From a virus: a DNA stretch of 11,080 nucleotides. Made by a program: the position numbers and the translations under genes. Positions within the stretch are counted from its first letter, which is position 1; every line of letters begins with the position of its first letter. Where the stretch lies: the UHGV virus genome UHGV-0230593, one strand, 5' to 3'. The notes beneath the pieces were generated by a model, which saw only the letters and a program-made list of their open reading frames with translations, ran no database searches and was not told the DNA's origin. Shown piece by piece: positions 6,849 to 8,791 of this stretch.

Positions 6849-8791
6849 ATGGCATTTAAACACTATGACGTGGTCAGGGCGGCGTCGCCGTCAGACCTTG
6901 CGGAGCGACTGACACAAAAACTGAAGGAGGGCTGGCAGCCGTTTGGCAGTCCTGTGGCTATCACTCCTTATACACTGATGCAGGCTATTGCCGCAGAGGG
7001 TGATGTGACCACGCCTGTGGTTGTGCCCGACACAGGGGCTGGTGGCTCTCCGGGAGTGGCTATCACTGAACCGGAGTATTACTACGTTATTCCCCTGGCC
7101 GGGCAGTCGAACGGTATGGCCTATGGTGAGGGGCTTCCTCTGCCGCAGACCTATGATCGCCCTGACTCCCGTATTAAGCAGCTGGCCCGTCGCAGCACTG
7201 TGACGCCGGGTGGTGATACCTGTGCATACAATGACGTTATTCCGGCAGACCACTGTCTGCATGATGTTCAGGACATGAGCGCACTTAACCATCCTCATGC
7301 AGACCTGAGTAAGGGCCAGTACGGGACTGTCGGTCAGGGGCTGCATATTGCCAAAAAACTGCTGCCTTATATCCCGCAGAATGCCGGGATACTTCTGGTG
7401 TCCTGTTGCCGTGGCAGTTCGGCATTTACCACCGGAGCCGACGGCTCATTCAGTGAGGTCAGCGGTGCTTCCGCTGATTCTTCACGCTGGGGAGCCGGTA
7501 AACCCCTGTATCAGGACCTGCTCAGTCGCACCAGAGCGGCGCTGGCGAAGAACCCGAAAAATAAACTTCTGGCTGTGGTATGGATGCAGGGAGAGGCAGA
7601 CCTTCTTCAGGAAGTCAGCAGCATAATGGTTTATTCACAGCCATGGTTCAGCAGTTCAGAACCGACCTGTCTCCACTTGCAGCGCAGTGCGTGAGTGGAA
7701 ATGCTGGCACGGTGCCGTGGATTTGTGGTGATACCACGTATTACTGGAAAAACACGTATGCCACGCAGTATGAAACAGTCTATGGCGCATATAAAAATCT
7801 GACCGCACAGAATATTTTCTTTGTACCGTTCCTGACGGATGAGAATGGACAGAACACGCCAACGAATGCTCCGGCGGAAGACCCGGATATTGTGGCTGTC
7901 GGGTATTACGGTGCGGCATCCCGAACCCAGGGCAGTTTTGTTTCGACACAGCGTGACAGCCATTTCAGCTCATGGGCACGCAGGGGCGTCATTTCAGACC
8001 GTCTGGCCTCAGCTATTATGCTCCATGCAGGGCGCACGGCTGAACTGATGCGCGGGCAGATCGTGACACCACCGGATGAGAAGCCGTCACCTGATACACC
8101 ATCAAAACCGTCCACACCACCGGCTGACACAACGACAATGAGCACGTTGCTTGCTTACCGGGCATCAGAGTCTGAAGGACAGCTGGCACCACAGGGCTGG
8201 ACTGCCGGTGGTGGCAAGGCTCAAATCGTGGATGATGCCGGAGCCAGCGGGGGTAAGGCAATGAAACTGACCAAGGAAACAGGTAAATCCTCCTGGTACC
8301 TTGAGCATGATGCCGGTAATGGTGCAGACCTGCTGGGTAAAGGTGGTCTTGTCAGCTGCCGGTTTAAGGTTGACGGCACACTGACGGCTAATCAGTACGC
8401 ACTGGCGCTGTACTGGCCGGTTTCTGCCCTGCCACAAGGGGTTACCCTGGAAGGTAATGCCGGTCATAACCTGCTGGCATCGTTTTATGTTCAGAGCGAT
8501 GCCACAGACCTTAACGTGATGTACCACAAGGGTAATCCAGGCCAGAACACGAAGCTGGGTTCATTCGGTGCATTTAATAACGAATGGCATACGCTGGCAT
8601 TCCGTTTTGCCGGTAATAACAGCATTCAGGTGACGCCGGTGATTGATGGACAGGACGGGACACCGTTCATGCTGTCGCAGTCTCCGGTCGGCACGTTTAC
8701 GGCAGACAAGTTGCGCGTGACCGATATCACTAACGGTGCAACATACCCGGTGCTGATTGACAGCATTGTGGTGGAAGTGAATAACGCGTAA
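6849..8791 (+). pseudogene. nanS: nanS-p-like prophage sialate O-acetylesterase (DUF1737 N-domain + SGNH/SASA esterase + C-terminal lectin-like domain), interrupted by a frameshift
   Basis: ATG 6849 with GGGGAGG RBS; N-terminal MAFKHYDVV... (DUF1737-like); esterase motifs GQSN (catalytic Ser block) and WMQGEADL; the reading frame changes between about 7600 and 7640 (ORF 6819..7694 continues as ORF 7580..8791 in the -1 frame), then runs to TAA 8789-8791. Same position as nanS-p/yjhS downstream of stx in Stx phages. Confidence 0.75.

Follow-up and report, generated by a model that had tools for sequence, protein, structure and literature searches.

A single missing base splits the nanS-p gene of a lambdoid Escherichia coli prophage into two reading frames

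NanS-p enzymes strip O-acetyl groups from Neu5,9Ac2 and from mucin sialic acids, which allows the lysogen to grow on these substrates, and their architecture has been described for both Shiga toxin (Stx) and non-Stx prophages (PMC10462455; PMC8065619). The virus genome UHGV-0230593, analyzed here as a stretch of 11,080 nt (the window), contains a nanS-p gene whose coding sequence is interrupted within the catalytic domain. What is the nature of this break: a mutation, an error of sequencing or assembly, a site of recoding, or a gene that is naturally divided? We found that a single missing G splits nanS-p, a prophage sialate O-acetylesterase gene of gut E. coli, into two reading frames. In all likelihood, this is a recent, genuine and isolated single-nucleotide deletion that has turned nanS-p into a pseudogene in a lambdoid, non-Stx E. 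coli prophage. The parts of the broken gene are the following:

6840..6844, plus strand: Shine-Dalgarno sequence GGAGG, preceding the native ATG 6849 (pairing with the 16S rRNA tail, -11.2 kcal/mol)
6849..7694, plus strand: upstream reading frame of nanS-p (translation, 281 aa)
6855..6998, plus strand: DUF1737, intact, aa 3-50 (Pfam, 4e-16)
7101..7112, plus strand: SGNH block I, GQSN, with Ser87 at 7107-7109 (phmmer to 3PT5, E 2e-116)
between 7604..7605, plus strand: the lesion, one G lost and codon 253 (GCT, Ala) destroyed (alignment to intact alleles)
7605..7694, plus strand: aberrant tail LQEVSSIMVYSQPWFSSSEPTCLHLQRSA and premature TGA 7692-7694 (out-of-frame translation)
7607..8791, plus strand: rest of nanS-p, encoding native residues 254-647 in the -1 frame, closed by TAA 8789-8791 (translation)
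7691..7694, plus strand: GTGA, a GTG of the downstream frame overlapping the premature TGA (Shine-Dalgarno duplex, +0.7 kcal/mol)
7952..7963, plus strand: RDSH block, with His372 at 7961-7963 (alignment to 3PT5)
8141..8785, plus strand: lectin-like jelly-roll, aa 432-646 (phmmer to PDB 6YP6 'NanS-p', E 3e-101)
8333-8686, plus strand: Pfam DUF6645 (8e-69)

The upstream frame begins at ATG 6849, the annotated start in every relative. Its product has 252 native residues, which cover DUF1737 and, in the SASA/NanS domain, SGNH blocks I-III, and then 29 residues read out of frame; it contains PLAGQSNG and VVWMQGEADL and ends at the TGA at 7692-7694. The -1 frame is open between TAA 7562-7564 and TAA 8789-8791, reading ...SGSQQHNGLFTAMVQQFRTDL..., and in this frame the remainder of the gene encodes the last third of the NanS-like catalytic domain, a linker rich in Pro and Thr, and the jelly-roll carbohydrate-binding domain. 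The Pfam domains are divided accordingly: DUF1737 and the first half of SASA (matched at aa 149-255 of the upstream product) lie in the first open reading frame (ORF), and DUF6645 lies in the second. Gene callers report two products, a 'DUF1737/SASA' protein of 281 aa and a 'DUF6645' protein of 382 aa, the latter starting at ATG 7643. Since the callers begin the second fragment at this ATG, an exact look-up of the 403-aa ORF from ATG 7580 gave no match. The 281-aa product, by contrast, is recorded exactly on contigs of the European Nucleotide Archive (ENA) and of Logan.

To locate the lesion, the gene (6849-8791) was compared by megablast with 5,426 complete E. coli genomes. Seven records matched at 99% identity or more, and each match was one base longer in the record than in the query. 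All seven carry a single coding sequence (CDS), named either 'SASA family carbohydrate esterase' or 'DUF6645 domain-containing protein'. When window positions 7540-7700 were aligned with four near-identical intact alleles, one gap was the sole difference in three of them, with the window reading GCAGACCTT-CTTCAGG and the other alleles GCAGACCTTGCTTCAGG. The site, CCTT^CTTCAGG in the window and CCTTGCTTCAGG in intact alleles, is not a homopolymer. Adding one G to the window gene yields exactly the 1944-bp CDS of E. coli HCP4S3_I4 (NZ_CM149872.1; protein WP_115195925.1); as in a recent frameshift pseudogene, there is thus an intact allele that departs from the broken one at the lesion alone. Three other strains differ from the window gene by the missing G plus one or two substitutions. 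Restoring the G yields a 1944-bp gene whose 647-aa product is identical to an E. coli protein (EEQ4850078.1 and others) recorded on 115 public contigs. Among intact loci, NZ_CP180632.1 is the nearest: 4 substitutions and the gap separate it from the window in 4,944 bp (99.9% identity). Since this locus is nearly identical and the gene is otherwise unchanged, the deletion is, judged by these alignments, very recent.

These results bear out most of what an initial annotation of the locus had proposed. Translation agrees with its esterase ORF from 6849, with GQSN and WMQGEADL in frame and a stop at 7692-7694, and both translation and the DUF6645 match agree with its statement that the protein continues in the -1 frame as far as 8791. 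It had suggested alignment to intact NanS-p proteins as the way to pin down the indel, and alignment to near-identical intact alleles reduces it to one missing G at 7604/7605. The site falls at the lower edge of the range proposed for the frame switch, 7605-7640.

The same deletion was found in assemblies besides the source contig, ENA ERZ27264784 k141_3305, to which the window is 100% identical over 10,232 bp. The 281-aa truncated product is also present on the Logan assemblies ERR6183228 (6,954 bp), ERR6183345 (5,290 bp) and ERR6004547 (4,086 bp). These three Logan contigs carry the deletion and are 100% identical to the window across their full lengths (4-7 kb). The lesion is thus reproducible at the level of assemblies, in three Logan runs and ENA ERZ27264784, which may all sample one strain.

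What would the deletion do to the protein? Ribosomes starting at ATG 6849 would be expected to make 252 native residues and 29 wrong ones, and to stop at TGA 7692. The frame changes after Leu252, directly behind SGNH block III (WMQGEAD). Such a product would retain DUF1737, blocks I-III and the nucleophile Ser87, and would lose the C-terminal ~140 residues of the catalytic domain, among them His372, together with the whole carbohydrate-binding domain. In the repaired protein, the order of domains is that of a NanS-p (DUF1737, SASA, DUF6645), which the window spreads over two frames; the NanS-like SGNH esterase domain covers aa 71-391 (3PT5, E 2e-116), and the Pro/Thr-rich linker connects it to the jelly-roll. 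The catalytic residues of NanS are Ser19 and His301. Ser87 falls on the nucleophilic Ser of E. coli NanS, and His372, in a frame that now differs from that of Ser87, falls on the catalytic His in the RSSH block of NanS. The assignment of both residues draws on the 3PT5 alignment, on these positions in NanS, and on a published description in which the corresponding block of NanS-p is RSSH or RASH (PMC10462455). The Ser of GQSN and the His of the R.SH block no longer share a polypeptide, as the His372 codon lies beyond the premature stop. With these two residues separated and the jelly-roll lost, loss of esterase activity is to be expected, and by homology the activity on Neu5,9Ac2 or on O-acetylated mucin sialic acids is predicted to be gone.

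The downstream part, having no ribosome-binding site of its own, would probably be translated poorly or not at all. Besides the GTG at 7691, the candidate starts are ATG 7580 and ATG 7643, with Shine-Dalgarno duplexes of -2.1 and -2.2 kcal/mol, respectively. As Shine-Dalgarno complementarity is practically absent at all three internal starts, it appears doubtful that the C-terminal part is expressed on its own. The GTGA overlap is a chance arrangement; termination-reinitiation is conceivable there in principle, with no Shine-Dalgarno sequence to assist it.

E. coli genomes that have any nanS-p-like sequence have it in a median of 5 places. With several copies per genome, and the chromosomal nanS that E. 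coli usually carries alongside them, loss of one is likely to be tolerated. The deletion is an ordinary event, explained by known biology. The proper annotation of the locus is a frameshifted nanS-p pseudogene rather than two genes, and its significance beyond that is small: the window exemplifies the loss of a redundant prophage accessory gene in commensal-type E. coli. Were the strain available, the allele would also be a natural esterase-null candidate for testing the role of NanS-p in growth on O-acetylated sialic acid, or in the virion, of a non-Stx lambdoid phage.

Could the broken gene nevertheless retain a function? The phi24B protein gp84, a NanS-p homologue, is a capsid-decorating protein whose DUF1737 binds the centres of hexons; its esterase and jelly-roll parts are cleaved off over time, and DUF1737 alone stays on the capsid hexons once the esterase has been processed off (bioRxiv 10.64898/2026.04.10.717836). 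By analogy, the lesion might be real and the gene not simply dead: the truncated DUF1737 product might decorate the capsid, or the GTGA might permit reinitiation and thereby yield the C-terminal part as a free carbohydrate-binding protein. DUF1737 (aa 3-50) is indeed untouched, and the GTG overlaps the premature stop. However, the related prophages have structural genes of HK97/lambda-like siphoviruses and are not phi24B-like podoviruses. Residues 1-33 differ little from the Stx-phage type, but the anchor loop (aa 34-60) diverges from the phi24B/933W type. The truncated SASA domain with its 29-residue nonsense tail is likely to misfold and may be degraded, the GTG lacks a Shine-Dalgarno sequence, and there is no sign of persistence or spread of the allele in GTDB, JGI metagenomes, IMG/VR or the 5,426 E. 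coli genomes. Taken together, retained function of this kind seems quite unlikely to us. It is slightly harder still to regard the allele as a natural separation-of-function mutant, with the DUF1737 capsid module kept, esterase and lectin lost, and the C-terminal part perhaps free via the GTGA; were that so, the virion or lysogen would lose the esterase and lectin modules only.

The second alternative is an artefact: an intact gene whose G was lost from the contig through a sequencing or assembly error. The repaired gene equals a common intact allele, which is how an error on an intact template would appear. A literature look-up of the run accessions gave no match. Moreover, the deletion allele is rare. 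The 80-mer carrying the deletion was not found in the 5,426 complete E. coli genomes; 30 of these match the 80-mer around the site and all carry the G, and the best matches all span 81 bases. Exact-pattern searches for the deletion allele in GTDB representatives, JGI metagenomes and IMG/VR also gave zero matches, and the intact pattern, serving as a positive control, was found on 4 IMG/VR contigs. The absence of the allele from these three large collections weighs against reading the locus as a genuine inactivating mutation, and so do three further points: the deletion is supported by assemblies, these four may share one study or host and so represent a single strain, and the loss of activity is read from homology. 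A single-strain origin would still count against an assembly error, though not for a wide spread of the allele.

An artefact would have to account for the same deletion in four assemblies that stem from two pipelines and three or more runs and otherwise agree throughout 4-7 kb, at a site that is not a homopolymer. The contig name (k141_...) indicates a short-read assembly, and in short-read assemblies single-base deletions at non-repetitive sites are rare. Since the four assemblies and two pipelines agree on the deletion at such a site, a genuine mutation is favoured, and we hold it with high confidence; an artefact is correspondingly unlikely. The initial annotation had left a genuine indel and a sequencing or assembly error side by side. 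The 1-nt deletion is now confirmed, and its reproducibility tips the choice towards the former.

Programmed -1 ribosomal frameshifting or transcriptional slippage, yielding a full-length esterase, would be geometrically possible, as the two frames overlap by 130 nt (7562-7694). However, none of the usual features of such a site (slippery heptamer, stimulatory structure, conserved two-frame layout) was found. Neither an X XXY YYZ heptamer nor any homopolymer reaching 4 bases occurs in the overlap (7562-7694), and the tRNA-Leu reading the CUU codons at the site is unable to re-pair in the -1 frame (CCU or UCU). The RNA from 7596 to 7700 (105 nt) folds at -30.2 kcal/mol, no better than shuffled sequences (z = -1.12; 25 of 200 shuffles fold as well), and Rfam has no element downstream of the lesion. 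The arrangement was also compared among 90 homologous loci, 10 of them close (E. coli and IMG/VR) and 80 from IMG/VR, with 63-97% protein identity. One stop-free frame was present in 89, so that close and distant homologues alike argue against a conserved recoding arrangement. In the exception (IMGVR_UViG_2713897056_000002, 1501-3430) the frame changes near codon 17-24, at a different site from that in the window. Recoding is thus extremely improbable. This upholds the initial annotation, which had seen no slippery heptamer and had dismissed programmed frameshifting; it had also pointed out that homologues consisting natively of two ORFs would speak against an inactivating indel, and the homologues turn out to be single ORFs at this point. 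A natively split gene can be rejected, given 89 continuous loci of 90 and one broken elsewhere. A 281-aa protein labelled 'partial' at NCBI was considered as a second truncated allele and discarded, being in the normal frame and cut by the end of its contig.

The window gene can be set beside several known systems. With the NanS-p of Stx phages (933W L0105/z1466; phi24B vb_24B_21/gp84), the repaired protein shares ~67% identity and the order DUF1737, SASA/NanS-like SGNH esterase, jelly-roll. In contrast to them, the window allele is split by a 1-nt deletion, with Ser87 and His372 on separate polypeptides, and it has the Pro/Thr-rich linker and a divergent DUF1737 loop. Residues 71-391 align with the chromosomal NanS (YjhS, PDB 3PT5), with the GQSN, QGE.D and R.SH blocks conserved; unlike the window gene, whose catalytic domain is interrupted after block III, NanS has neither DUF1737 nor jelly-roll. 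The nanS-p alleles of Stx2a phages disrupted by insertion sequences of the IS3 and IS66 families (PMC10462455) are likewise natural alleles with a coding sequence altered by mutation, whereas the lesion in the window is a single-base deletion in the catalytic domain. Frameshifted nanS-p alleles are not mentioned in that report. At the nucleotide level, similarity to Stx-phage nanS-p (~79%) ends at query base 743, which is window position 7591, 13 nt upstream of the deletion. This break resembles a mosaic boundary within the gene family, whose 5' part is conserved and whose 3' part diverges, and it probably has nothing to do with the deletion.

The gene lies where nanS-p is found in lambdoid late regions, between Q with its tRNAs and the lysis cassette, and annotated relatives show the same order. 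Upstream of it are RusA, a Q-like DUF1133 protein, a DNA methyltransferase and three tRNAs, and downstream are DUF1378, DUF826, a holin, YdfR and a lysozyme. In the Stx phages 933W and phi24B, nanS-p has the same late-operon place, preceded by Q, a DNA methyltransferase and a cluster of three tRNAs and followed by DUF1378/DUF826 and the holin and lysozyme genes; unlike theirs, the window allele belongs to a non-Stx branch, with no stx genes separating the tRNA cluster from nanS-p. The remaining genes of the window are all equal in length to their annotated counterparts in strain 14EC001. Prophage decay, which had been proposed as one explanation of the break, is thus weakly supported as a general state, the other genes being intact; what the window shows is a single recent lesion. 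In strain 14EC001 itself (NZ_CP024127.1), the closest full-length relative, the portal gene (19280-21702) is annotated as frameshifted, so an isolated frameshift is nothing unusual among prophages of this group that otherwise look intact.

Three other elements of the window were identified:

6094-6343, plus strand: three phage tRNAs (ARAGORN), the first with a CAT anticodon (Met), then Arg-TCG and Arg-TCT
6448-6645, plus strand: small RNA STnc100, full length (Rfam, 135.7 bits)
327-2061, plus strand: two overlapping genes matching the RosmerTA anti-phage defence pair (PADLOC)

The first tRNA, Met according to ARAGORN, is annotated as Ile in RefSeq relatives. STnc100, between the tRNA cluster and nanS-p, occupies the position of the stx operon in Stx phages. 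The RosmerTA pair is inserted between hokD (6-161) and a DUF968 gene, and comprises RmrT (216 aa, E 4e-24) and RmrA (367 aa, helix-turn-helix and peptidase M78, E 7e-107), both detected with PADLOC. The segment that contains it (~250-2065) is missing from some relatives (such as locus L001) and present in 14EC001. A second variable segment, ~300 bp at 10055-10364 between the YdfR-like and lysozyme genes, is present in three of the related loci (L001, L004, L005) and replaced in three others (L002, L003, L006); in relatives it includes an ORF on the minus strand, which the annotation gives as a pseudogene (internal stop).
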